Positions 15,738 through 31,527 of a DNA stretch of 42,998 bases are shown here, piece by piece. Position 1 is the stretch's first letter. Every line of letters begins with the position of its first letter. The notes below the pieces were generated by a model, which searched no databases, was not told the origin of the DNA, and was given only the letters and a program-made list of their open reading frames with translations. Position numbers and translations under genes: made by a program. Origin of the DNA: Candidatus Kapaibacterium sp. (GTDB lineage: Bacteria > Bacteroidota > Ignavibacteria > Kapaibacteriales > UBA2268); the NCBI GenBank assembly GCA_026390675.1, contig JAPLFM010000175.1:1-42998 (forward strand). The letters are read 5' to 3'.

Positions 15738-16751
15738 ATGATTAAAAGCGAAATAATTTTATATCAAAACCAAGATGGCTCTATAAAATTAGATGTACAT
15801 CTTGAAGAAGAAACTGTTTGGCTTAATCAAGCTCAAATTGCTGAATTATTTGGTAAAAGTCGAACAACTATTACAGAACACATAAAAAACATTTTTTCAG
15901 AAGGTGAATTGATTGAAATTTTGGTATGTCGGAATTTCCGACACACCATTCAACATGGTGCTATTAATGATAAAACACAAAGCAAAGAAGTAAAATACTA
16001 TAACCTTGATGTTATCATTTCAGTTGGCTATAGAGTTAAATCTTTACAAGGAACTCAATTTAGAATTTGGGCTACTCAACGTTTAAAAGATTATATAGTA
16101 AAAGGCTTTGCATTAAATGACGACAGGTTTAAGTCTGGTAATTCTATGAATTACTTTAATGAACTTCAAAACCGAATTCGTGAAATACGTTTATCTGAAC
16201 GTTTTTTTTATCAAAAGATTAAAGATATTTACATCACAAGTATTGATTATAACCCAAAAGATGAAAAAACAATTGAGTTTTTCAAAATTGTTCAGAACAA
16301 ACTATTATGGGCTATTAGTCAGCAAACAGCAGCAGAATTAGTTTATCGTAGAGTAGATGCAAGTTTGCCCTTGCTTGGTATGCTATCAATTGATAAATCA
16401 AATACAGATAAAATTAATATTAAAGATGTCAGTATTGCTAAAAATTATTTAAATGAAGATGAAATTAAGTTGTTAGGACTTTTGGTTGAGCAATATTTAG
16501 CTTTTGCTGAAACTATGGCTCAACAACAAACACCAATGTATATGAAAGACTGGATAAACAGGTTAGATAGTATTTTACAACTAAATGGTAGAGAATTATT
16601 AAATCATGCCGGAAAAATAAGTCATGAATCTGCTCTTGATAAATCCAAAGAAGAGTATGAGAAATATAAATTTGCTCAAAATGAATTGGAAAAAGAGCAT
16701 AGTTTAAAAGAAATTGAAGCTGATATTAATATGTTAAAAATAATTAATTAG
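15738..16751 (+). CDS. rhuM: RhuM family (virulence RhuM-like DNA-binding) protein
   Basis: ETVWLNQAQIAELF, YNLDVIISVGYRVKS..GTQFRIWAT, RIREIRLSERFFYQKIKDIY, VQNKLLWA. Confidence 0.9.
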   Translation: MIKSEIILYQNQDGSIKLDVHLEEETVWLNQAQIAELFGKSRTTITEHIKNIFSEGELIEILVCRNFRHTIQHGAINDKTQSKEVKYYNLDVIISVGYRVKSLQGTQFRIWATQRLKDYIVKGFALNDDRFKSGNSMNYFNELQNRIREIRLSERFFYQKIKDIYITSIDYNPKDEKTIEFFKIVQNKLLWAISQQTAAELVYRRVDASLPLLGMLSIDKSNTDKINIKDVSIAKNYLNEDEIKLLGLLVEQYLAFAETMAQQQTPMYMKDWINRLDSILQLNGRELLNHAGKISHESALDKSKEEYEKYKFAQNELEKEHSLKEIEADINMLKIIN

Positions 16752-21739: not shown

Positions 21740-22096
21740 CTAAACTCCAGTACTACCAAAGCCTCCAGTACCTCTATCTGTATCACTTAATGTTTCTTTT
21801 TCATTCCAAGTAATATGCTCATACTTAGCAATTACAAGTTGTGCAATTCTATCACCAGACTTTACAACAAAAGTATCCTTCCCAAAATTTGCTAAGATTA
21901 CTTTTATCTCTCCTCTATAATCAGAATCAATAGTACCGGGTGAATTCAAACAAAATAGTCCACTCTTGGCTGCTAGCCCACTGCGAGAACGAACTTGACA
22001 TTCATATCCAGATTGCAATGCAATTGATAAATTAGTAGGTATCATAGCCACCTTCCCAGCCGAAATTGCAATTTCTTCATCCATTGCAGCATACAC
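21740..22096 (-). pseudogene. dut: dUTP diphosphatase, apparently 5'-truncated (motif 1 missing); first usable ATG at 22084
   Basis: RSGLA, GTIDSDYRGEI, GDRIAQL and RGTGGFGSTG are present; homology starts at VYAAMDEEI with no AGxD motif; the upstream in-frame sequence is the off-frame rsmI tail. Confidence 0.7.
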
Positions 22097-23597
22097 CACT
22101 AAACTTACCACCTTTCTTAATACCGCCACTTCTTCTTGGTCTAGAATCGCCCTCTGGCTTTTCGAATTTTTTAGCTCTACTCTCTCTATCAGATGAGTCC
22201 CATCTCTTTTTCTTATCATCAGATCCAGAAGCAGTCCTATCTGTACCGGGAGTATATTCCCTCTTAGGTCCATCTACTCTTGTCGAAGAGTAAATTCTCT
22301 TTGGTCTGTCTTCACTACTACGTGGAGTATATTCTCGCTTTGGTCTATCTTCACTACTGCGTGGTGTATATTCTCGCTTTGGTCTATCTTCACTACTGCG
22401 TGATGAATATTCTCGCTTAGGTCTATCTTCACTACTGCGTGATGAATATTCTCGCTTAGGTCTATCTTCACTACTGCGTGATGAATATTCTCGCTTAGGT
22501 CTATCTTCACTACTGCGTGGTGTATATTCTCGCTTAGGTCTATCTTCACTACTGCGTGGTGTATATTCTCGCTTAGGTCTGTCTTCACTACTAGAACTAT
22601 AAGCTCTTTTTGGTCTTTCACCATCACCTATACTTTCTCTTCTTGGAGGTCTATCTCCAGCGTCCATATCTCCATCAGGTCTTGGTGGTCTTTCTTCTCT
22701 ACCAAATCCTCTAAATCTATCTTTCTTAAAATCGCCTTCTTTTCTTTTTTTGTCTTTTCCGCCTCTATATCCAAACTCTTTATCATCATTGTCATCAATA
22801 GTTCTAGTAGGTTTAAATTTATTTCTATCTTCTCTAAATGGAACCACAGCAACTGGTACATTATTCTCTCTACCTTCAAAACAAATCACAACCTCAGCAC
22901 GCACCGATAATGTTTCAAATTTCTTCTTTAGTTCTTCAAAAGTACCATAATGATGTGTTTCAAATAGTGTTGTCAAATTCATACCAATATAAGCTCTACG
23001 TTCTGGCATTACTTCGCAAGCTGCATCAAGAAATGGGCGAAGTCTGTAAGGAGTTTCCAAAAGTACAACTGTATGTGGCTGTCTTTCCAATGCTTTTAAT
23101 GCTTCTATTCTTAGCTCAGTTTTTTGAGATACAAATCCTGCATAATAGAATTTGTCAATTGGCAAACCGCTACGTACTAAGGCAGCCATAATTGATGTTA
23201 CTCCGGGAGCAACTTCAATTTCAATTCCAGCAGCAAGTGCTGCACTTACCAAATTTGCACCCGGATCTGCAAATACAGGAGTTCCACAATCAGAAATCAA
23301 TCCAATTCTAGTTCCTTCTTTCATCTTTTTTATATATTCAGCTACACGTTGGGTTTCATTTTGTTCATTTAGATTATCTAAATCTTTGCGTATATTATGT
23401 GTTTTTAATAGCTGTGCCCCAACTCTAAACTCTTCACAAACAATTAAGTCCGATAATTTTAGTAGTCTTATTGCTCTTTGAGTAATATCTTCTTCGTTTC
23501 CAATTGGGGTAGATATAATATAAAGTTTACCAACTTTTGGCTCTTCTATTTCTATCTTTTTACGCATAGAAAGATCTTCATTTTCAAATTTTCTCAT
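22077..23597 (-). CDS. rsmI: 16S rRNA (C1402-2'-O) methyltransferase with a long charged repeat tail
   Basis: LYIISTPIGNEEDITQRA, LISDCGTPVFADPG, ETPYRL; ~250 aa R/D/E/S-rich extension. Confidence 0.9.
   Translation of the reverse strand: MRKFENEDLSMRKKIEIEEPKVGKLYIISTPIGNEEDITQRAIRLLKLSDLIVCEEFRVGAQLLKTHNIRKDLDNLNEQNETQRVAEYIKKMKEGTRIGLISDCGTPVFADPGANLVSAALAAGIEIEVAPGVTSIMAALVRSGLPIDKFYYAGFVSQKTELRIEALKALERQPHTVVLLETPYRLRPFLDAACEVMPERRAYIGMNLTTLFETHHYGTFEELKKKFETLSVRAEVVICFEGRENNVPVAVVPFREDRNKFKPTRTIDDNDDKEFGYRGGKDKKRKEGDFKKDRFRGFGREERPPRPDGDMDAGDRPPRRESIGDGERPKRAYSSSSEDRPKREYTPRSSEDRPKREYTPRSSEDRPKREYSSRSSEDRPKREYSSRSSEDRPKREYSSRSSEDRPKREYTPRSSEDRPKREYTPRSSEDRPKRIYSSTRVDGPKREYTPGTDRTASGSDDKKKRWDSSDRESRAKKFEKPEGDSRPRRSGGIKKGGKFSGVCCNG
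22282..22593 (-). repeat. 39-bp coding tandem repeat x8 (SSEDRPKREY[TP/SS]R)
   Basis: Eight near-identical units visible in both DNA and protein. Confidence 0.92.
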
Positions 23598-23814
23598 TTA
23601 TTCTTATAGATTTGTTAAAATAATTTTTACAAACATACCTATAAATGCCCTATTTTCATAGTAACATTATGATATTAAAGAAAATAGATTGTAAATAGCA
23701 GAATTAAACTTAAGTATATAACTTTGATATGCAGATAATTTTATATAAATACTCATATTATCATCTTCATCAAACAAAAAAATAGGCACTTTTTTAGACA
23801 GCATTCAATTCAAA

Positions 23815-23947
23815 GTTCCGTAGGAACGACCAGATTGTAGTAAATAAAACAAATATTATATTATTAATTCCCTAGATGTAACATTGGAGCTCCTTTGGTG
23901 CTTAAAAGAAATTAATTTGCTACAAATATTGAACTCCTTTGGAGTTC
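23815..23947. repeat. REP-like short palindrome cluster
   Basis: GTTCC-GTA-GGAAC (23815-23827), degenerate GCTCC-TTT-GGTGC (23889-23901), GAACTCC-TTT-GGAGTTC (23931-23947), with internal TGTAG...CTACA. Confidence 0.55.
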
Positions 23948-23991
23948 TAAAAGAATATAAAATAAAATTAGATAAAAAGTGATTTGTAATA

Positions 23992-24546
23992 TTACTCATT
24001 TACAATACACGAATTAGGTATCATATAACCTTCTACAATTTGGTTATTTGTAAAAAACCAAAGGCGTCCTTCAGCAGAATCAATTCTACTATGGCTACCA
24101 AAAGCAATTGTAAACTTATCACTTTGCGAATGTGGTAAATACCAGTATCCATAGCCCCAATTATATCCTATTTTTTTGTCTCTCTCTCTTTCTATTGAGT
24201 CACACGTTGGTTTGTGGAACATTTACCATAAGTCAATTTGATAAATTTTGTTGATCTTAATTTTACTTCGCTCTAAATTATCATATAATTTGTTTTTATA
24301 GTACATTATATAAATTGTATCTTTAAACTGATTGATAGCCTGAATACTCTCATAGCAATATTCATTTGAAGTATCTTCTAATACTTGTGAATTCCCTAAA
24401 AGTATTATATTTGTGTCAATAACTCTAATTTTCATTTTATAAATATTATCATTTGGCTTAATCAAATTTTGATTTGAGTTTAATTCAAATGAAACTAAAA
24501 ACAAAATAATATATAATATGCAATTAATTTTCACTTTTTTATCCAA
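23992..24546 (-). pseudogene. secreted hypothetical (candidate orphan immunity) gene split by an in-frame TAA at 24223-24225
   Basis: ORFs 24223..24546 and 23992..24222 share a frame and join as TGG TAA ATG; N-terminal signal-like segment. Confidence 0.55.
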
Positions 24547-24604
24547 TACTTTTATAAATTTAGATAATGATTGATTGTAAATAAATTAGCAAAATTAATA
24601 AAAC

Positions 24605-24648
24605 CTAAACTTACTTAGGAGCTTTACCTACTTTAGAGCATTACCGAA
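24605..24648 (-). repeat. conserved post-stop motif, copy 1 (with a 17-nt internal duplication)
   Basis: Minus strand TTCGGTAATGCTC-TAAAGTAGGTAAAGCTC-CTAAGTAAGTTTAG; matches 27882-27908. Confidence 0.7.
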
Positions 24649-25152
24649 TTAATTATTTTTTTTACGACGAACAGGTTTTATAATTTCCATTTTGCAATAA
24701 TAAACTTCTTTTACAGTACACATTAAATCTTCTCTTATACAATTTTTTTGAAGTTCAATGTTAGCTGCAGTATTTGGGTAAATTATTGTTTTGTATCGTT
24801 CATCCCAATTGAATGGAGTTAACTTTACCTTACTCCCAGCTTTAATTTGACCTTTAAAGTTAGCATCAACAAAACCTAAAGTATCATTTTCATTTGTAAT
24901 AGCAATTAAAAAACTTGACCAAAAAACCATATCATAATGCAAAACAGGTGCAAACATTAATACTTTAGCTTCTTTCTCTTCTAATAAGTCTTTGTAAACC
25001 CATTGTTTCTTACACTCAGATGCAATTGATGATTTTATCTTTGCATTATGCTTGCTCTTATGTTTGCTTTGTTGTACGTCAGGCTTTGTCTCAGCAAAGC
25101 ATGCAATTACAAATAAGAAAGAAAGTATTGTATTTAAAGCTTTATTTTTCAT
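24649..25152 (-). CDS. exported hypothetical protein, candidate immunity protein
   Basis: Signal-peptide-like N-terminus; begins 7 bp after the Rhs-derived ORF 25159..25380. Confidence 0.6.
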   Translation of the reverse strand: MKNKALNTILSFLFVIACFAETKPDVQQSKHKSKHNAKIKSSIASECKKQWVYKDLLEEKEAKVLMFAPVLHYDMVFWSSFLIAITNENDTLGFVDANFKGQIKAGSKVKLTPFNWDERYKTIIYPNTAANIELQKNCIREDLMCTVKEVYYCKMEIIKPVRRKKNN

Positions 25153-25158
25153 AACTAT

Positions 25159-25380
25159 CTACTTTTTATCTACAGGTTTGTGAGATTCTTTATCTGGATA
25201 TCCTTCATATAAATGATAATCTTTTTTATCTTTATCCTTAACGATTAAATTGCGAAGAAATTCAATATTTACATCTTTGATTGAAGTAACTTTAATTTTT
25301 GGTTCCGTTCTAAGATTTATAACTGATGTAGGATCAAAATAATATTGTCTTTTGTCCATTATACGGAAGGAATTTTTCAT
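25159..25380 (-). pseudogene. internally deleted Rhs tip (core fragment fused to a short unique C-terminus)
   Basis: KNSFRIMDKRQY matches KNFFRILDKKQY of the Rhs ORF 28462..29643, then diverges. Confidence 0.65.
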
Positions 25381-25619
25381 ATTGGTTACTCCCTCCCCGA
25401 TTTTAACTTGTTAAAATCTTTGGTGGAGGGTTGGGGTGGGGTTCTTAGCGTATTTCCAGCTAAGAAAAACACATCTAATAATATATTTGTTTTAGTTTTC
25501 ATTTATAACTTAAATTCAATTTCATTCTTGCAATTTAACAACTTTTTGTGGTAAAACAGCATTTTTTTTAAGAACCCACCTCATTCCTGCCCCAAGGGGA
25601 GGAAGTAACCAACTTCTGA
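25381..25619. mobile_element. ~240-bp non-autonomous inverted-repeat element (REPIN/MITE-like), copy A
   Basis: Terminal IRs TTGGTTACTCCCTCCCC (25382-25398) / GGGGAGGAAGTAACCAA (25596-25612), 16/17 match; inner IR GGTGGG(G)TTCTTA / TAAGAACCCACC; perfect hairpin GATTTTAAC-TT-GTTAAAATC; second copy at 29644-29883. Confidence 0.75.
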
Positions 25620-25690
25620 GTTAAGTTTATTCAATATAATAATTTATTTCGTTTTTCGTGTAATTGTAAAAAGAAAATAGTAAAAATAAA

Positions 25691-26167
25691 TTGAATAAAC
25701 AAAAAGTATATATAGAGACTAGTGTAATAAGCTATTTGACTTCAAGACCAAGTAGAGATATAATAGTTTCAAGCCACCAACAAATTACAAACCAATGGTG
25801 GAAGAAGTCTAAAAGTAAATTTAATAATTATATCTCAGAATTTGTAATTGATGAAATATCAAAAGGAGATAAATCTGCTTCAGAAATTAGACTTGCTTCA
25901 GTAAAAAATATTCAATTGCTTGAATATGATGATGATATTGTTGAAATTGCAATTAATTATGCTAATTTATTATCAATTCCAGAAAAAGCTAGACTTGATG
26001 CATTTCATTTAGCTATTTCTGTATATTATGAAATAGACTTTTTACTTTCTTGGAATTGCAAACATATTGCAAATGCTGTGGTTATGAGTAAATTAAGAGA
26101 TTATAATAAAACTAAAAATTTATTTACACCGATATTATGTACACCATTAGAATTATTAGAGGTTTAA
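25691..26167 (+). CDS. PIN-domain (VapC-like) toxin
   Basis: KVYIETSVISYLTSRPSRD...DAFHLAIS...DFLLSWNCKHIAN...PILCTPLEL. Confidence 0.85.
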   Translation: MNKQKVYIETSVISYLTSRPSRDIIVSSHQQITNQWWKKSKSKFNNYISEFVIDEISKGDKSASEIRLASVKNIQLLEYDDDIVEIAINYANLLSIPEKARLDAFHLAISVYYEIDFLLSWNCKHIANAVVMSKLRDYNKTKNLFTPILCTPLELLEV

Positions 26168-26168
26168 T

Positions 26169-26321
26169 ATGTTCAAAGATAAAATAGTAGATGAAGTTAG
26201 GAAAAATCGTGAAAAGATTTTTGCAGATTTTGATTATGATATGAAAAAATATTCCAAATATATTATTGAAATGCAAAAAAATGAGACTAGACATTTGGTA
26301 AATAAAGATTCAATTACTTAA
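26169..26321 (+). CDS. 50-aa putative antitoxin partner of the PIN protein
   Basis: Manual translation MFKDKIVDEVRKNREKIFADFDYDMKKYSKYIIEMQKNETRHLVNKDSIT; GAGG RBS; D.IV.EVRK.R proteins typically follow this PIN family. Below the ORF-track cutoff. Confidence 0.7.
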   Translation: MFKDKIVDEVRKNREKIFADFDYDMKKYSKYIIEMQKNETRHLVNKDSIT

Positions 26322-26325
26322 ATAC

Positions 26326-26425
26326 TATAATCACACACACTTTTCTCATCTACTACAAAGCTATTACCACTTGGTGTCTTCATATCTCCTATAGCTACAC
26401 GCACACTTCCTAAGTGGTCTTTAAG
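26326..26425 (-). pseudogene. Rhs core remnant
   Basis: Translates LKDHLGSVRVAIGDMKTPSGNSFVVDEKSVCDY vs LKDHLGNVRVAIGDMKIP...FVVDEKAVNDY in 28462..29643. Confidence 0.85.
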
Positions 26426-26523
26426 ATTGTCCCAAACTGCTTTCGGCACTTCGGGAGCCCTTTCTTATTGTTTTTGTCAATACCATTTGAAAATGTATTA
26501 AGGAGTATTTAAAGAAAATAAGA

Positions 26524-26750
26524 TCAAATAACTTTGTTGAAATCATCTATACTTATATCTGCTTGTTCTAATATAACTTTTAATGTTATTTTTTTTATAG
26601 GATTATGAACTGGAATTGTAATTTTATAAGTTTTATTTATACTAAGTTTATGTAGTCTAATGTGGCTTACTTTTGTCTAACTACCACAAAACCAAGTCTT
26701 TGAAGCCCATTAATGACTTCTTTATATGATAATAATGGAATTGGAGTCAT
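26524..26750 (-). pseudogene. hicA: HicA mRNA interferase toxin, 1-nt frameshift near 26669
   Basis: MTPIPLLSYKEVINGLQRLGFVVVRQK* then shifted frame SHIRLHKLSINKTYKITIPVHNPIKKITLKVILEQADISIDDFNKVI*; 227 nt; ATGA overlap with the hicB stop. Confidence 0.82.
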
Positions 26751-26950
26751 ATTGAAATTTCATCATAAATTCTATTATTTATTTGAATCATTTCATCTTC
26801 AATCGGCTCAAGGTATAGTTCTATTGCTTCCTTTATGTTTAAAAGAGCTTCATCTCTTGAGTCACCTTGACTTATACACCCCTGCAAAGAAGGAACATAA
26901 ACCACGAAACCACCCTCTTCAGCTTTTTCTAAAACTACTTTAATATTCAT
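26747..26950 (-). CDS. hicB: HicB family antitoxin (short form)
   Basis: EEGGFVVYVPSLQGCISQGDSRDEALLNIKEAIELYLE. Confidence 0.9.
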   Translation of the reverse strand: MNIKVVLEKAEEGGFVVYVPSLQGCISQGDSRDEALLNIKEAIELYLEPIEDEMIQINNRIYDEISI

Positions 26951-27052
26951 TTTTAATCTCTAATTATTTTATTTGAAGTCGTTTCATTTTAAATATTATT
27001 TTACTTGACTTAGTTCAAACAACTTCAGAAGACAAATTGCTCTTACAATTTT

Positions 27053-27080
27053 CCAAGGGGAGGAAGTAACCAACTTCTGA
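27053..27080. mobile_element. isolated right end of the inverted-repeat element (copy B, partial)
   Basis: CCAAGGGGAGGAAGTAACCAACTTCTGA, identical to 25592-25619 and 29856-29883. Confidence 0.8.
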
Positions 27081-27134
27081 AAATCTTCCTTGTTGTTCAT
27101 TACCGTATATATGCCATTCATAGAGTTTGGGCAT
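27081..27134 (-). pseudogene. Rhs core remnant
   Basis: Translates MPKLYEWHIYGNEQQGRF vs MKPKLSEWHIYGNEQQGRF at the start of 28462..29643. Confidence 0.85.
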
Positions 27135-27231
27135 TTTGGAAATGTTTGCTATATTTGAGTTAGGTTTATTCAATATAATAATTTATTTCGTTTTTCGTGT
27201 ATTTGTAAAATATCAAAATCACAGAAATTAA

Positions 27232-27840
27232 ATGCAAGAAAAAACACTAACTTATGAGCAATTAATCAATCTTTTTAGTGAATTAAGAGATTCTCAAGCT
27301 AAAACTGATGCTCAATTAAAAGAATCACAAGCTAAAACTGATGCTCAATTAGCCAAAACTGATGCTCAATTAGCTGAAACGAATAGATATATCAAAGAAT
27401 TAGGAATTCAAATAGGTGGAGTAAATAGAAGTTTTGGAAAATTTACTGAAGAATTATTTATGAGCTCACTTGAAATAATGATGAAATCAAACTTTGGTAT
27501 TCAATCATTTGATCCAAATCCTTCACGTAAGTTAGAATCTGATAGTATTGAAATAGATGCTATGGGAATTATTAATGGCAGTATTAACAAAGTTTATATT
27601 GCTGAAATTAAATCTACTTATAGCAAAAAAGCAGTAAAGCAGTTAAGTAAAATAATGGCTAAATTCAACTCTTTTTATCCAGAATTAAGTGATAAAAAGA
27701 AATTTGGAATTATTGCTGTACCATTTTTGAAAGAAGAACAAATAAAAGAAATTTCAAATGCAGGATTTTATCCAGCTGTTTTCAAAAATGAAATGTTAGT
27801 TATTCAATCTCCTGATAATTTCAAAGCAAAAGCTTTTTAA
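27232..27840 (+). CDS. coiled-coil plus PD-(D/E)xK nuclease-like protein (DUF3782-like)
   Basis: AKTDAQL heptad repeats; FGKFTEE...IEIDA...IAEIKS putative E-D-ExK triad. Confidence 0.75.
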   Translation: MQEKTLTYEQLINLFSELRDSQAKTDAQLKESQAKTDAQLAKTDAQLAETNRYIKELGIQIGGVNRSFGKFTEELFMSSLEIMMKSNFGIQSFDPNPSRKLESDSIEIDAMGIINGSINKVYIAEIKSTYSKKAVKQLSKIMAKFNSFYPELSDKKKFGIIAVPFLKEEQIKEISNAGFYPAVFKNEMLVIQSPDNFKAKAF

Positions 27841-27881
27841 TTACTAATTGATTTCAAAGAACTTATACATATTTCAATCTT

Positions 27882-27908
27882 CTAAACTTACTCAGGAGCA
27901 TTACCCAA
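27882..27908 (-). repeat. conserved post-stop motif, copy 2
   Basis: Minus strand TTGGGTAATGCTCCTGAGTAAGTTTAG begins at the first base after the stop of 27909..28427. Confidence 0.7.
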
Positions 27909-28427
27909 TTACCACATACTAAATGTAGTTTTATCGCCAATATTATACTCTGGGAAATTAATTTTTAATATTTCAATTAATTCAAGCGAATTTTTATGAA
28001 TATACAATACTTCATTATCATGACCAACTTGAATTTCTATTAAAATAAATCCGCCTGCTAAATTCACAATGTTTAACTTTCTATATTTCCATTTATTCAT
28101 TTTAAGTTCTTTTTGAAAATATTTTGTATATCTAAACCCTTTTATATTGAGTAATCCTTCTGAATTCAAAGAAACATGTGTTAAAGTATATCTATCTAAT
28201 TTGAAATATCTTAATTCCAATAATATAAATAGAAATTCAAAAATCATAAAAACAATAAAGAATGAAATATTTGTAGTTAAAATTAAAAACACATTAATGC
28301 AGGTATAAATAATGAAACCATTGAAAATAATAAATATTAAAATATTTATAGTAAAATATAGTTTTATAAAAAAATTATATTTCTTTTTCTCATAATAATA
28401 TAAGTTTTGATTGTAGGAATCTTCCAT
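27909..28427 (-). CDS. two-TM membrane protein, candidate immunity protein for the adjacent Rhs tip
   Basis: Two N-terminal hydrophobic helices; extremely AT-rich; 35 bp downstream of the Rhs ORF. Confidence 0.6.
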   Translation of the reverse strand: MEDSYNQNLYYYEKKKYNFFIKLYFTINILIFIIFNGFIIYTCINVFLILTTNISFFIVFMIFEFLFILLELRYFKLDRYTLTHVSLNSEGLLNIKGFRYTKYFQKELKMNKWKYRKLNIVNLAGGFILIEIQVGHDNEVLYIHKNSLELIEILKINFPEYNIGDKTTFSMW

Positions 28428-28461
28428 ATTAAATAAAATTTTGTGAACAAATACTTTTACA

Positions 28462-29643
28462 TTATTTTTTAGGTTTAACTTTTGGTATTAATGGTATCTC
28501 AATAGAATTTTTAGTTTCATTCACATTATTTATAGCACTTATTGTACTATTAACTTTTTGTAACATTAATGGAGCTTCTCTAATTTCTTTAATATCTTTT
28601 CTTAAATTTAATATATTCCCTATAATTTCGCCAATATTCCCAGCATTTTCAGTACCAAATTTTTCATCAATTTTATTTCCAATTGTTCTTCCAATCAATG
28701 GTGCGATACTAGTAGGAGAAGCAGGTTGGTTACGATTTATTGCATTTTGTGATGTTGAAAACAAATTATATACAAAGTCAATTGCCAAAATTGTAGTAGC
28801 AACTGGAGTTGCAACCGTTGCAGTAGCAACAATTGCAGTAAAAGTAATTGGAGCTGTAATACTTAATAATATTAAATCATTTCCTCGAGATTGTTGGTCT
28901 TTAAAATATTCTCCTGGTTTGCCTGGTATATCAAATAGACTACTATATGGTTTTCCTTTATACTCATACGAATTTACATCTGAATTTGGACCAAGATATT
29001 TGTGGTCGTCATAAATAGGTCTATAACCATTAGGACCACTAAAACATTTTGGATGTTCTACAACCTGAAAAGTCCCATTTGATTGTTCTTCAACTTTCCA
29101 CATAAAGACTGTATGTTTTGATTTACCATCTTTATCAATAGAATTTATCGGACTATCACCTGCATACACATAAGAACTCTGAAATGCAAACTTATCTTTC
29201 AATTTATCAGGTGTAGGGAATCTTATTATTCTTGGATCAAATACTCTTTCACCAAAGTCCAAGCTATTACCAGTTCCTTTCAGCTCATTATCATTTTCTT
29301 TACCATTATATCCATACCTACTACTTCCACTGCTCCAGCTTCTGTCACATATAAGCATGCCATAAGGGTAATAGTCGTTTACTGCTTTCTCATCCACAAC
29401 AAAAGGTGCTACCCCTCTCACAGCAGTAGGTATCTTCATATCTCCTATAGCTACTCTTACATTGCCTAAATGGTCTTTTAGTTCATATTGTTTTTTATCA
29501 AGTATTCTAAAGAAATTCTTATTTGTTACATCACTTGTCAAAACATCAAGGTAATACAAAGGTTCTGCATCTGGCTTTCTTACTGTAAATCTTCCTTGTT
29601 GTTCATTTCCGTATATGTGCCATTCAGATAGTTTTGGTTTCAT
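28462..29643 (-). CDS. orphan Rhs-associated core plus C-terminal putative toxin
   Basis: YELKDHLGNVR, DYYPYGM, RYGYNGKEND, DFGERVFDPRI.RF, SSYVYAGDSPINSIDKDG; unique tip with a hydrophobic segment; no N-terminal Rhs body or signal peptide. Confidence 0.88.
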   Translation of the reverse strand: MKPKLSEWHIYGNEQQGRFTVRKPDAEPLYYLDVLTSDVTNKNFFRILDKKQYELKDHLGNVRVAIGDMKIPTAVRGVAPFVVDEKAVNDYYPYGMLICDRSWSSGSSRYGYNGKENDNELKGTGNSLDFGERVFDPRIIRFPTPDKLKDKFAFQSSYVYAGDSPINSIDKDGKSKHTVFMWKVEEQSNGTFQVVEHPKCFSGPNGYRPIYDDHKYLGPNSDVNSYEYKGKPYSSLFDIPGKPGEYFKDQQSRGNDLILLSITAPITFTAIVATATVATPVATTILAIDFVYNLFSTSQNAINRNQPASPTSIAPLIGRTIGNKIDEKFGTENAGNIGEIIGNILNLRKDIKEIREAPLMLQKVNSTISAINNVNETKNSIEIPLIPKVKPKK

Positions 29644-29883
29644 ATTGGCTTCTCCCTCCCCGATTTTAACTTGTTAAAATCTTTGGCGGAGGGCTGGGGT
29701 GGGGTTCTTAGCATATTACCAACTAAGCTAATCACTTCCAATAATATTTTATTTTTAACTTTCATTTATAACTTAAATTCAATTTCATTTGTTGCAATTT
29801 AACAACTTTTTGTGTAAAATCAGCATTTTTTTAAGAACCCCACCTCATTCCTGCCCCAAGGGGAGGAAGTAACCAACTTCTGA
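29644..29883. mobile_element. ~240-bp non-autonomous inverted-repeat element (REPIN/MITE-like), copy C
   Basis: Colinear with 25381-25619; ends nearly identical, central core diverged. Confidence 0.75.
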
Positions 29884-29954
29884 AATAAATTGCCATTATA
29901 ATAATTTATTTCGTTTTTCGTGTATTTGTAAAATAACAAAATCACAGAAATTAA

Positions 29955-30509
29955 ATGCAAGAAAAAACATTAACTTATGAGCAATTGATAAATCTTTTTC
30001 AAGAAGATAGAAAACAATTTCAAGAAATTAAAGAAGCTCAATTAAAAACTGATAAACAAATCAAAGAGCTAGGTATTCAAATCGGAGGTTTAGGTAATAG
30101 GTTTGGTCAATTTACTGAAGATTTGTTTTACAATTCTCTCTCTAAAATTATGAAAGAGAAATTTGGAGTTCAATTTTTTGAACCAAATAGATCGAGAGAA
30201 AAAGGTGATGCTTCAATAGAAATTGATGCCATGGGCATTGTTAATGGTAGTATAAATGCTGTATATTTAACTGAAATTAAATCAAAATATAACAAAAAAG
30301 CAATTGAACAACTTACTGTAATAATTAAAAAGTTTGATTCATTTTATCCAGAATTAAGTGATAAAAAGAAATTTGGAATAATTGCTGTGCCTCACTTAAA
30401 TGAAAATCAAGCTAATGAAATACTTAAGGCTGGTTTTTACCCAGCAACATTAAAAAATGATTTGGTTGTGATAGATACTCCTAAAAATTTCAAACCTAAA
30501 GAGTTTTAG
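29955..30509 (+). CDS. coiled-coil plus PD-(D/E)xK nuclease-like protein (DUF3782-like), paralog of 27232..27840
   Basis: Same MQEKTLTYEQLINLF start, IEIDAMGI.NGSIN, EIKS, FYPELSDKKKFGIIAVP. Confidence 0.75.
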   Translation: MQEKTLTYEQLINLFQEDRKQFQEIKEAQLKTDKQIKELGIQIGGLGNRFGQFTEDLFYNSLSKIMKEKFGVQFFEPNRSREKGDASIEIDAMGIVNGSINAVYLTEIKSKYNKKAIEQLTVIIKKFDSFYPELSDKKKFGIIAVPHLNENQANEILKAGFYPATLKNDLVVIDTPKNFKPKEF

Positions 30510-30742
30510 TAATTTTATTTAAATGAACTAAATCCAAATAATTATACATTTTAAAGAACTCGATGCAGATGATTTGGAGATCAAAAAGAAGCTTAAAAAA
30601 AATCGACGTAATTTGACAAAAAACGCACTTTGGAAAACTTATTTGGAAAATTTTTCCAAATTTTCTAAATGTACTCACATATACTCTAATTCCTTTTGAA
30701 AATATTTGTGATTCTAAAATCAATTTACCTCAGATCACTCTT

Positions 30743-30758
30743 TGGCATAAATCTTGTA
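30743..30758 (+). promoter_or_regulatory. sigma54-like promoter of the hook operon
   Basis: TGGCAT-AAATC-TTGTA, correct -24/-12 spacing, 33 bp before the ATG at 30791. Confidence 0.6.
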
Positions 30759-30790
30759 AACTATATGATAAATTTACAAATTAAAAGTCA

Positions 30791-31492
30791 ATGAACGGTA
30801 AACAATTACTTACAATAATATTACTTGCATCTTTATCAATTACATTGATATTTAGTATGCTTGCTGGTATTTATAAATATAAACCAGACTGGTTAGGTTA
30901 TCCACCATTGCCTGGTGATACTGTAAAAGTGGTTAAAAAAGACACTGTCTATTTAGAGCCAACTGTACAAATTACTGAGAAGAGATTGGCTGAATTAAAT
31001 AGAGATGTTGCACAAAAACAGATTTTTCAAACTGAAAAAGATTCGCTTTATGCAAAAAACAAAAGAATAGTTGATTCCCTTAATATTTACAAGAACAAAA
31101 TTGCATTTTATTTAGATTCAATCTCAAGAGTTCAAAAAGTTTTAGGCAACACCAAAGGATTTGGAAACAATTTGCAAGACTCTATAAAAAAACTTGTTTC
31201 TAAATTTAAAGACGCTCAAGATAAGTTAAAGATAGCTGAACAAAGAGCAAGTGATCAAGAAAAGTTTATTTCAACTAAACAAGATACACTTGAGAAAAAA
31301 AGTTTTCAAGATTTTGCAAAGATATATAATAACGCTAATCCAAAAGATGTAGCGAAGATATTAGAACAATTAGATGAAAGAGATGCCGCTCACATTTTGA
31401 AGTTGATGTCAAAGAAAAAAGCTGGCAAGATTATTGAAAGTATGAAACCACAGAAGGCTGCTGCAATTCTTTTGCTAGGCGATTCTGAATAA
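30791..31492 (+). CDS. flagellar MotE/FlbB-like protein (TM, coiled coil, MgtE_N-like domain)
   Basis: FAKIYNNANPKDVAKILEQLDERDAAHILKLMSKKKAGKIIESMKPQKAA; position upstream of fliK. Confidence 0.75.
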   Translation: MNGKQLLTIILLASLSITLIFSMLAGIYKYKPDWLGYPPLPGDTVKVVKKDTVYLEPTVQITEKRLAELNRDVAQKQIFQTEKDSLYAKNKRIVDSLNIYKNKIAFYLDSISRVQKVLGNTKGFGNNLQDSIKKLVSKFKDAQDKLKIAEQRASDQEKFISTKQDTLEKKSFQDFAKIYNNANPKDVAKILEQLDERDAAHILKLMSKKKAGKIIESMKPQKAAAILLLGDSE

Positions 31493-31527
31493 AAAAATGG
31501 ACAGGATGTCCCATAAATATATAATAT

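Follow-up and report, generated by a model that had tools for sequence, protein, structure and literature searches.

A probable strain-variable islet of orphan Rhs tips, nuclease genes and toxin-antitoxin modules in a Candidatus Kapaibacterium genome, interrupted by a hairpin-bracketed repeat with sequence ties to a DUF559 gene

What organises a locus in which pieces of Rhs genes, candidate immunity genes, nuclease genes and toxin-antitoxin (TA) pairs stand back to back in three look-alike units? The locus lies on contig C72 (JAPLFM010000175.1) of the draft genome GCA_026390675.1 of Candidatus Kapaibacterium sp. (here G000; 3.66 Mb in 330 contigs, 28.6% G+C, 94% complete), and the window analysed comprises the first 42,998 of the 59,747 bases of that contig; 12 listed sequencing runs, none of them of RNA and labelled as freshwater or lake metagenomes, carry the stretch. 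The islet in question is 6.8 kb in size and contains Rhs tips with immunity genes, nuclease genes and TA pairs; similarity to the sister species (G001) ends at 23698 and restarts at 30739. Its units A, B and C were found where the initial annotation had placed them, together with two copies of a 240-bp palindromic element (units A and C) and a solo right end of it (unit B). That annotation had taken the element for an integron-like hub through which toxin cassettes on both its sides are captured, shuffled and expressed. All support for the account given here is computational and comes from a fragmented draft genome.

Judged by comparison of the sites, the recurrent frame of the units consists of truncated Rhs tips, a 26-nucleotide (nt) motif and a PD-(D/E)xK nuclease gene (hereafter PD) with its own upstream box, and the element appears as an insert into this frame and not as its organiser. 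The islet as a whole is probably a strain-variable competition/defence islet, that is, a decayed array of orphan Rhs tip-immunity pairs into which small modules were inserted and whose parts recombined, with the element, a DUF559 remnant, possibly serving as an adaptor. The direct observations behind this reading are the anatomy of the islet, the copy numbers of its parts, the comparison of filled with empty sites, the DUF559 origin of the element and a different content beside rsmI in one population (run X3).

At 10 of 14 PD loci, the start of an Rhs tip was found on the other strand beyond the box, joined through a conserved spacer of ~35 nt (by eye). This spacer is uninterrupted in unit B and at five other loci (C252, C51, C60, C265 and C40), and in an alignment of these six sites without the element and two sites with it, the element falls inside the spacer between Rhs start and PD gene (units A and C). 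The same back-to-back Rhs/PD arrangement thus exists without the element, which speaks against its proposed role as organising hub; nor does it serve the PD/TA side, as had been supposed, since the PD gene's own 38-nt box does so. The box, sought with up to 7 mismatches tolerated, has 16 copies in G000, 14 before PD genes, one before the PIN-like pair of the window and one before a BrnT gene (C154; PF04365, E 3e-25), and the last two imply an exchange of the coding part behind a common regulatory module. The PD genes of units B and C (PD_B and PD_C) are 95% identical over the box and the first 45 nt and 71-73% identical in the gene body, and C51 and C265 share one spacer/box variant with different PD types. 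The far end of the PD unit is formed by the 26-nt cassette-end motif, which also follows both immunity-type open reading frames (ORFs) of the window and has 11 matches in G000, 10 of them credible and all after immunity-type ORFs or PD genes; the PD unit 27055-27912 is repeated with identical ends on C40, C265, C112 and C60. In the sister species, PD genes likewise stand divergent to Rhs starts on contigs C187, C424 and C35. Upstream of two PD genes (C211:8250-8392 and C223:34030-34165), and at C252:~1000-1500, we also noted a sequence translating to ..SWRVNNLGDWVKSYKVFDHLGSLRV.., which resembles the start of a second class of Rhs tip.

The description of PD_B and PD_C as PD-(D/E)xK paralogs was confirmed. 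The two products are 60% identical in amino acid (aa) sequence and both keep E55, E89-I-D91 and E107-x-K109, of which E55, D91 and E107-x-K109 are invariant across 27 aligned PD sequences; PF12644 spans the N-terminal coil. For PD_C, a structure predicted with a mean pLDDT of 85 matched NucS/EndoMS best among PDB entries (E 3e-5), followed by Card1/Can2 and XisH. Conserved residues and a modelled restriction-endonuclease-like fold thus place the PD genes in the PD-(D/E)xK superfamily. G000 contains 17 PD matches, G001 11 and G025, from another family, 15, with 0-2 in each of the other 28 relatives; the paralogs within G000 are 29-82% identical. A search of a genome contig collection with PD_C returned 6 loci in other phyla.

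By alignment, the element itself is an internal-deletion derivative, resembling a miniature inverted-repeat transposable element (MITE), of an endonuclease gene of the DUF559 (Vsr-like) type that stands between inverted GC-rich hairpins. Its copies at 25375-25625 and 29638-29883 are 90% identical over 247 nt, with inverted arms of 28 nt (82% complementary) and a fold, computed as single-stranded DNA, of -32.5 kcal/mol (z = -4.1; 0 of 200 shuffles equally good). Each is built of a left (L) hairpin module, an AT-rich middle and a right (R) hairpin module, the left one being an inverted copy of the right type. On C256, the hairpin pair encloses a 545-nt version with matches to PF04480 at 1386-1529 (E 7e-8, one stop) and 1285-1383, a DUF559 interior that is a pseudogene with a stop and an internal loss. 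Elements A and C and both copies on C70 lack the same ~245 nt relative to this long copy, and the alignment together with the shared loss is what identifies the element as a DUF559 deletion derivative. What the four deletion copies retain of the gene is its leader and a few codons from its start, plus the ~16 codons at its end; the C-terminal tail of the gene passes through the left hairpin and ends at a TGA. In element A, the R hairpin spans 25566-25619 and the L hairpin 25381-25452, and the element also contains the 5' leader and the terminal ~16 codons. Full 240-bp copies are few, these four besides fragments, and the R-type tail is joined to Rhs codon 19, as in unit B, also on C154, C204, C70 (twice), C252 and C40. 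The element is non-autonomous and palindromic, as had been proposed. A 41-nt degenerate pattern of its left end had 0 matches in a metagenome contig collection. The remnant reading frame forms a leader ORF of 41 aa in element C (29640-29765, minus strand), whose TGA overlaps the ATG of RhsC (ATGA), and of 38 aa in element A (~25389-25503, minus strand), whose TAA lies 8 nt before the ATG; a role of the leader as a real protein was set aside, as the copies in A and C differ at many residues and carry no signs of constraint (by eye).

Intact DUF559 genes occur at C289:20432-20746 and C161:2347-2664, each between inverted GC-rich hairpins of its own sequence type, which suggests a general hairpin-bracketed DUF559 unit. 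No description of such a unit was found in the literature searched, where DUF559 is absent from the titles and abstracts of the papers that use the word. A survey of the PD-(D/E)xK superfamily puts Vsr and DUF559 into one group with a homing endonuclease from a group I intron (PMC3424549).

The expected association of the element with Rhs and TA genes holds for its own subfamily, which is nearly confined to the neighbourhood of Rhs pieces, PD genes and TA genes (flanks read by eye), and not for the hairpin family at large, which is scattered and for the most part has no link to Rhs. The hairpin core AAGAACCCCACC gave 79 matches in G000 with at most 1 mismatch, ~4 of them, inside genes, judged to be chance; the remaining ~75 copies form a genus-specific family, most of them in mosaic intergenic repeats unlinked to Rhs. 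The sister species has 32 matches, all single hairpins and 0 of full length, and in more distant relatives no more than a few weak matches were seen. Separately, C177:18335-18673 carries the one clear RAYT-like Y1 transposase gene of G000, with different short palindromes (of the CTTGGGGTTTCACCCCAAG and GGCTTACAGCCTAAG types) on both sides, partly duplicated downstream; a REPIN/RAYT reading of the hairpins was rejected, as this Y1_Tnp gene (E 1e-26) has none of the sought hairpin motifs within 1.6 kb.

The Rhs part of the frame consists of tips that stand alone. RhsC, the tip of unit C, matches the Rhs core model TIGR03696 over aa 91-173 (E 3e-11; 43.7 bits with a cut-off of 32.5), and its aa 3-173 align to aa 2317-2506 of a 2900-aa ORF of the relative G009 and to aa 2198-2365 of a 2609-aa ORF of G026. 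In its aa 176-393, which contain a long hydrophobic stretch, no protein-atlas score reached 0.9, and Pfam and NCBIfam recognised only the core. Rhs cores typically end in the cleavage motif PxxxxDPxGL; at the expected site RhsC reads ..GDSPINSIDKDGK.., with DKDG and not DPxG. The 172-aa membrane ORF that follows it has no family match in Pfam, NCBIfam or PADLOC and no paralog in G000, and the 167-aa ORF of unit A has no family match in the same three collections. Where the initial annotation had counted four Rhs core pieces, three are solid and the fourth, the 73-aa ORF of unit A, is marginal: only ~12-14 of its codons look like Rhs (MKNSFRIMDKRQY), and tblastn with this ORF returned itself alone. 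Its junction type recurs on C65 and twice on C256, and Rhs remnant B1 has a paralogous counterpart on C112.

Genome-wide, the core model has 15 matches in G000, 12 of them over the cut-off, and 12 Rhs-tip ORFs have a length of 289-511 aa. The full-length Rhs proteins of the relatives (2900 and 2609 aa) match G000 only from aa 2316 and 2198 onward, respectively, over the C-terminal ~200-400 aa, with the exception of C34, a 1.6-kb contig with further YD repeats that is itself cut off upstream. The longer copies on C18, C13 and C51 read through 'MPKLSEW', so that its Met is internal in the native protein; PD-adjacent copies lose Rhs homology ~10-14 codons upstream of this Met. In the 94%-complete assembly, no full-length rhs was found and type VI secretion system (T6SS) sheath and PAAR models had 0 matches, with the limit that absence from a draft is not proof; PF05593 also had 0 matches in G000, a model that likewise misses the long Rhs of G009 and G030. 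For the window itself, the statement that it holds no full-length rhs, recombinase or transposase was borne out in a Pfam scan of 38 ORFs. Beyond the window, a second cluster at C72:57245-59564 comprises Rhs core remnants, a 155-aa ORF and a PIN-like paralog, and C65:1-7390 is an orphan array in the order Rhs tip, ORF, Rhs tip, ORF, Rhs remnant and PIN-like gene, with a left-hairpin module at its head. An IS3-type transposase (rve, E 5e-24) lies 1.5 kb from the C65 array, and a 272-aa gene at this array recurs beside the same left-hairpin module on C265.

Of the two TA modules, the PIN-like gene is weak when the window copy is taken alone (PF01850, E 0.008, below the cut-off), and its assignment to the PIN family stands through its paralogs, of which 4 of 4 match PF01850 (best E 1.5e-6), and through conserved acidic residues: E55, D103 and D116 are invariant, and position 9 is D or E, the window copy having E. 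Searched against PDB sequences as a single sequence and as a profile, the protein gave 0 matches. Its 50-aa partner is without family match and sits downstream, not upstream. A further PIN-like paralog was seen at C72:44485-44952. As to the hicBA pair of unit B, hicB was confirmed and hicA is broken, the breaks having been read in three frames against the intact hicBA pair on C112.

That the site varies between populations, as had been anticipated, is seen in run X3, from another study, whose population is ~96% identical in rsmI at a depth of ~290. There, a 2419-nt contig runs from rsmI to 23952, continues with 26 other letters and 27837-27905, and then proceeds from 26357 onward; X3 also contains a tandem of a PD gene and a second PD start 71 nt apart. 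Its joints fall at module borders (PD stop, cassette-end motif, Rhs remnant) and not at element ends. Runs X1 and X2 match the window piece by piece at even depth. Between species, the lack of synteny of the flanks rules out a comparison of the rsmI-motE interval: G001 and G002 carry rsmI and motE on separate contigs, G005 has them at a distance of 45 kb, and rsmI of G001 adjoins nuoG. The motE-like protein found no relative in the metagenome contig collection.

On the reading that we prefer, modules would have entered into and between the Rhs cassettes and then recombined. The inserts would be two DUF3782-type PD genes with their own boxes, a third box that now stands ahead of the PIN pair, the hicB/broken hicA pair, and two copies and one fragment of the DUF559 derivative. 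The three look-alike units are then explained by a few junction sequences that recur genome-wide and recombine, namely the conserved 5' part of the Rhs tips, the Rhs/PD spacer with the box, the 26-nt motif and the hairpins.

The element may, in addition, have acquired a use. Its orientation is that of the Rhs ORFs, and 8 of 8 L-type copies are followed by an ORF (393, 371, 161, 73, 49, 33, 31 and 12 aa) whose ATG overlaps the DUF559 stop or comes immediately after it, the first two ORFs being intact Rhs tips, the third lipoprotein-like and the other five short. A strong Shine-Dalgarno (SD) sequence, GGGGAGGGAG, is located 8 nt upstream of the ATG, in the 3' arm of the L hairpin. SD-like motifs precede 14% of 1711 long ORFs of G000 versus 2-3% at control positions, from which we take it that the genome uses SD sequences. 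Given the common direction and the overlap of DUF559 stop and ATG, the element may supply a promoter, leader ORF, SD and start codon, all of which an orphan tip would gain from the DUF559 remnant; RhsC and its membrane partner would then act inside the cell, in the manner of a TA pair, rather than as a delivered toxin. The idea of such an expression adaptor is made reasonable by a precedent in Salmonella, where orphan Rhs toxin/immunity pairs are described as internally expressed type II TA modules (PMC7043789).

Several points weigh against this reading and against parts of the account of the islet. The promoter, SD and start roles of the element are conjecture based on sequence. A scan for sigma-70-type promoters found 38 sites with 44.5 expected from shuffles; the SD is paired in the 3' arm of a -18 kcal/mol hairpin in the predicted mRNA, which could block translation; of the 8 ORFs that follow the element, just 2 are intact tips; and 4 of 5 Rhs joins have an identical junction (MKNFFRILDKK) and could all go back to one event. 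The RhsC tip has no match to a known toxin family, and toxin and immunity roles were assigned by position only. The figures for the association of the element with Rhs, PD and TA genes come from reading flanks, the scripted enrichment count being flawed: it gave 6 of 18 subfamily copies versus 3 of 61 remaining copies no more than 600 bp from an Rhs/PD match, with a loose pattern that misfiled 5 copies and tblastn features that missed short remnants, and its p-values were not used. Finally, public contigs stop at each repeat and 0 span the islet, so that the module order is taken from the original assembly.

The common view of orphan Rhs tips is that of a silent reserve behind a full-length rhs gene; at least 12 of them persist in G000, where no full-length rhs, T6SS sheath or PAAR was found. 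If the start that the element supplies is used, the islet would provide a second, natural case in which orphan Rhs pairs act as internal TA modules, and an example of a decayed selfish gene re-used as an expression adaptor. DUF559 and DUF3782 genes, for their part, gain a testable context as hairpin-bracketed units that would multiply and leave MITE-like derivatives. Coordinates of all features are given in Table 1.

Table 1. Features of the islet, in window coordinates
Feature	Position	Strand	Remarks
Variable islet	23953..30740		between rsmI (22077-23597, -) and motE-like/fliK flagellar genes (30791 onward, +)
Two small ORFs, 76 aa and 107 aa	23992..24546	-	second with hydrophobic N-terminus
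Cassette-end motif (GGTAATGCTC..AAGTARGT), two overlapping copies	24609..24651	-	directly after the stop of the 167-aa ORF
167-aa ORF, signal-peptide-like start	24649..25152	-	candidate immunity/partner of unit A, by position
73-aa ORF, unit A	25159..25380	-	first 12-14 codons resemble Rhs 'KNFFRILDKKQY'; remainder unrelated; no Rhs core
Element A	25378..25619	-	DUF559 deletion derivative; ends at ATG of 73-aa ORF
PD box before PIN-like gene	25635..25672	+	2 mismatches
PIN-like gene (158 aa) and 50-aa downstream partner ORF	25691..26321	+	PF01850 via paralogs
Rhs remnant B1	26318..26449	-	68% over 37 aa to RhsC aa 55-91, E 3e-7
hicB (26747-26950) and hicA pseudogene (~26525-26750)	26525..26950	-	PF15919, E 1e-10; hicA with stop and frameshift
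Hairpin-repeat fragment with R-type tail (..GGGGAGGAAGTAACCAACTTCTGA)	27030..27082	+	solo right end 27053-27082, 28-30 nt
Rhs remnant B2	27078..27136	-	first 19 codons of common orphan start (MPKLYEWHIYGNEQQGRF); 89% over 18 aa (27078-27131)
'Empty' divergent spacer (27137-27173) and PD box (27174-27211)	27137..27211		no element between Rhs start and PD
PD_B	27232..27840	+	202 aa; DUF3782-type coiled coil and predicted PD-(D/E)xK nuclease domain
Cassette-end motif	27841..27911	-	between convergent PD_B and immunity ORF
172-aa polytopic membrane ORF	27909..28427	-	candidate RhsC immunity protein, by position; 35 nt after RhsC stop
RhsC, orphan Rhs tip, 393 aa	28462..29643	-	last shell repeats and core, aa 1-175; C-terminal domain, aa 176-393
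Element C	29641..29890	-	same deletion derivative as A
PD box before PD_C	29897..29934	+	0 mismatches to copy at 27174
PD_C	29955..30509	+	184 aa; paralog of PD_B; PF12644, E 1.6e-9
Mosaic intergenic repeat, TTTGGAAAATTTTTCCAAAT type	30510..30740		commonest such repeat of G000

Among the alternatives, we regard it as unlikely that turnover of the islet is driven by its nucleases, that is, that the PD and/or DUF559 genes are selfish, homing-like genes targeting the 5' part of the Rhs tips, with their cuts setting truncation points and recombination. Two unrelated nuclease-gene units do stand at the 5' edge of Rhs tips, Rhs-start sequence lies upstream at the 10 of 14 PD loci mentioned above, the joins of element or hairpin fall at Rhs codons 1, ~16, 19 and ~42 and thus within 130 nt, PD is multicopy in few genomes (G000, G001 and G025), and the Vsr/DUF559 group includes a homing endonuclease of a group I intron (PMC3424549). 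The PD paralogs, however, are old, their range of 29-82% identity being unlike recent homing; at seven loci examined in G025, G005 and G016, and on C213 of G001, PD sits by itself between housekeeping genes, away from any Rhs; and a single spacer is common to all PD-adjacent Rhs starts, which fits one ancestral insertion that was later copied. A bolder version, in which PD and DUF559 units would parasitise the 5' part of Rhs tips, cut and shuffle the cassettes, and leave a remnant that makes the tips self-expressed TA-like modules after loss of the delivery scaffold, seems to us quite improbable from the sequences at hand; if true, such parasitism would amount to a nuclease-driven cassette system without a dedicated recombinase.

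We also think it quite unlikely that the palindromic element is a recombination site that captures and expresses cassettes on both sides in integron fashion. In its favour, L-type ends meet downstream ORFs of five kinds at exactly one base (Rhs codon 1, Rhs codon ~42, the lipoprotein-like ORF and two short ORFs), 13 of 13 R-type ends with a CTTCT tail adjoin a PD box, a PD stop or the start of an inverted Rhs (by eye), and the content beside rsmI is different in X3. Set against this are the two-sided architecture at six sites that have no element, and a PD/TA side that depends on the PD box, 11 box loci having no adjoining element-type hairpin. Furthermore, the window contains no recombinase, the ends are unlike attC-type core sites (by inspection), and the element is a gutted gene and not a dedicated site, its four copies with one deletion fitting the copying of a derivative rather than repeated site-specific capture. 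The X3 joints at 27837, 27905 and 26357 in turn suggest gain and loss irrespective of the element.

It is very unlikely that the islet is an assembly artefact, a chimera of paralogous repeat-bounded pieces from several loci or strains joined by short-read assembly or binning, for although each public contig on it ends at a repeat (25145/25633, 27193/27295, 29326/30012 and 30371/30635) and the genome is split over 330 contigs, with N runs in several scaffolds, the unique islet segments and both flanks have equal depth in run X1 (4.8-7.3) and in X2, a contig of X2 (24132-25418) crosses the junction between the Rhs-like ORF of unit A and the L hairpin, a contig of X1 (25633-27193) runs from the PIN gene to the unit B spacer, and the same module joins turn up again on independent contigs.

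The surroundings of the islet are ordinary and comprise a two-component kinase, surface proteins sorted by the type IX secretion system, a penicillin-binding protein, dUTPase and rsmI as well as a flagellar motE/fliK/flgD/flgE block. The named homologues closest to one of the islet genes belong to metagenome-assembled genomes of Kapaibacteriota and Ignavibacteriota. The 76-aa and 107-aa ORFs at the rsmI side have no family in Pfam, NCBIfam or PADLOC and no paralog in G000; a PADLOC scan of 10 ORFs and an Rfam scan of 23000-31500 at E <= 1 gave 0 matches each. At the mosaic repeat 30510-30740, the summed contig depth is ~50x that of the flanks in all four runs, and public contigs end there. The C-terminal half of rsmI carries, at 22246-22631, seven tandem 39-nt units (72-100% identity to the reference copy) that encode repeats of the type SSEDRPKREY(T/S)PR, and the sister species has the same kind of tail. 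Among the housekeeping genes of the window, a gene for a 23S rRNA-intervening-sequence (four-helix-bundle) protein and a RhuM-family gene were noted at 1071-1421 and 15738-16748; both families are commonly met as stray inserts.

Compared with known systems, the islet recalls the orphan Rhs arrays linked with rhs C-terminal displacement in Salmonella, Escherichia coli and Serratia, in which truncated tips likewise keep the core; a small cognate ORF follows them there, and a candidate one here. In those arrays, too, several tips share a locus, with 5' homology that allows recombination (PMC3967940), and expression from an internal start with type II TA behaviour has been described (PMC7043789). 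The islet differs from them in that no full-length rhs was found upstream or elsewhere in the assembly and no T6SS sheath or PAAR was found, that its tips are interleaved with nuclease and TA genes on the opposite strand, that a conserved cassette-end motif is present, and that some tips would take their start codon and SD from the remnant of a foreign gene.

With MITEs, REPINs and modular intergenic repeats (Correia/NEMIS, BOX, REP/RAYT) the element has in common that it is short and non-coding, has inverted-repeat ends, folds into a long hairpin and occurs in modular multicopy mixtures, and like MITEs it is an internal deletion of a longer gene-bearing unit. Unlike in MITEs, the parent encodes a DUF559/Vsr-like endonuclease and not a transposase; no target-site duplication was seen at the filled sites in the alignment of element sites.

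Integrons, and clusters of attC sites without integrase (CALINs), carry attC sites with ends of the form RYYYAAC/GTTRRRY. The islet is like CALINs in its small, promoterless-looking, TA-rich cassettes with imperfect palindromes between them at a strain-variable chromosomal site. It departs from integrons in having no IntI-type integrase nearby, genes that run both ways and cargo that in part has its own box. The integron-like nature suggested by the initial annotation was therefore given up: PF00589 had 0 matches among the window ORFs (8 elsewhere in G000), and attC-type ends were absent by eye.

In type II TA islands (PIN/VapC, HicAB, BrnTA), modules cluster with other conflict genes, as they do here; different here are a PIN pair and a BrnT gene behind a box that is otherwise used by the PD gene. 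Orphan Rhs arrays, TA-rich islets and MITE-like repeats are thus already known individually, and what is new is their combination and the origin of the repeat from a DUF559 gene, as read from the aligned copies.

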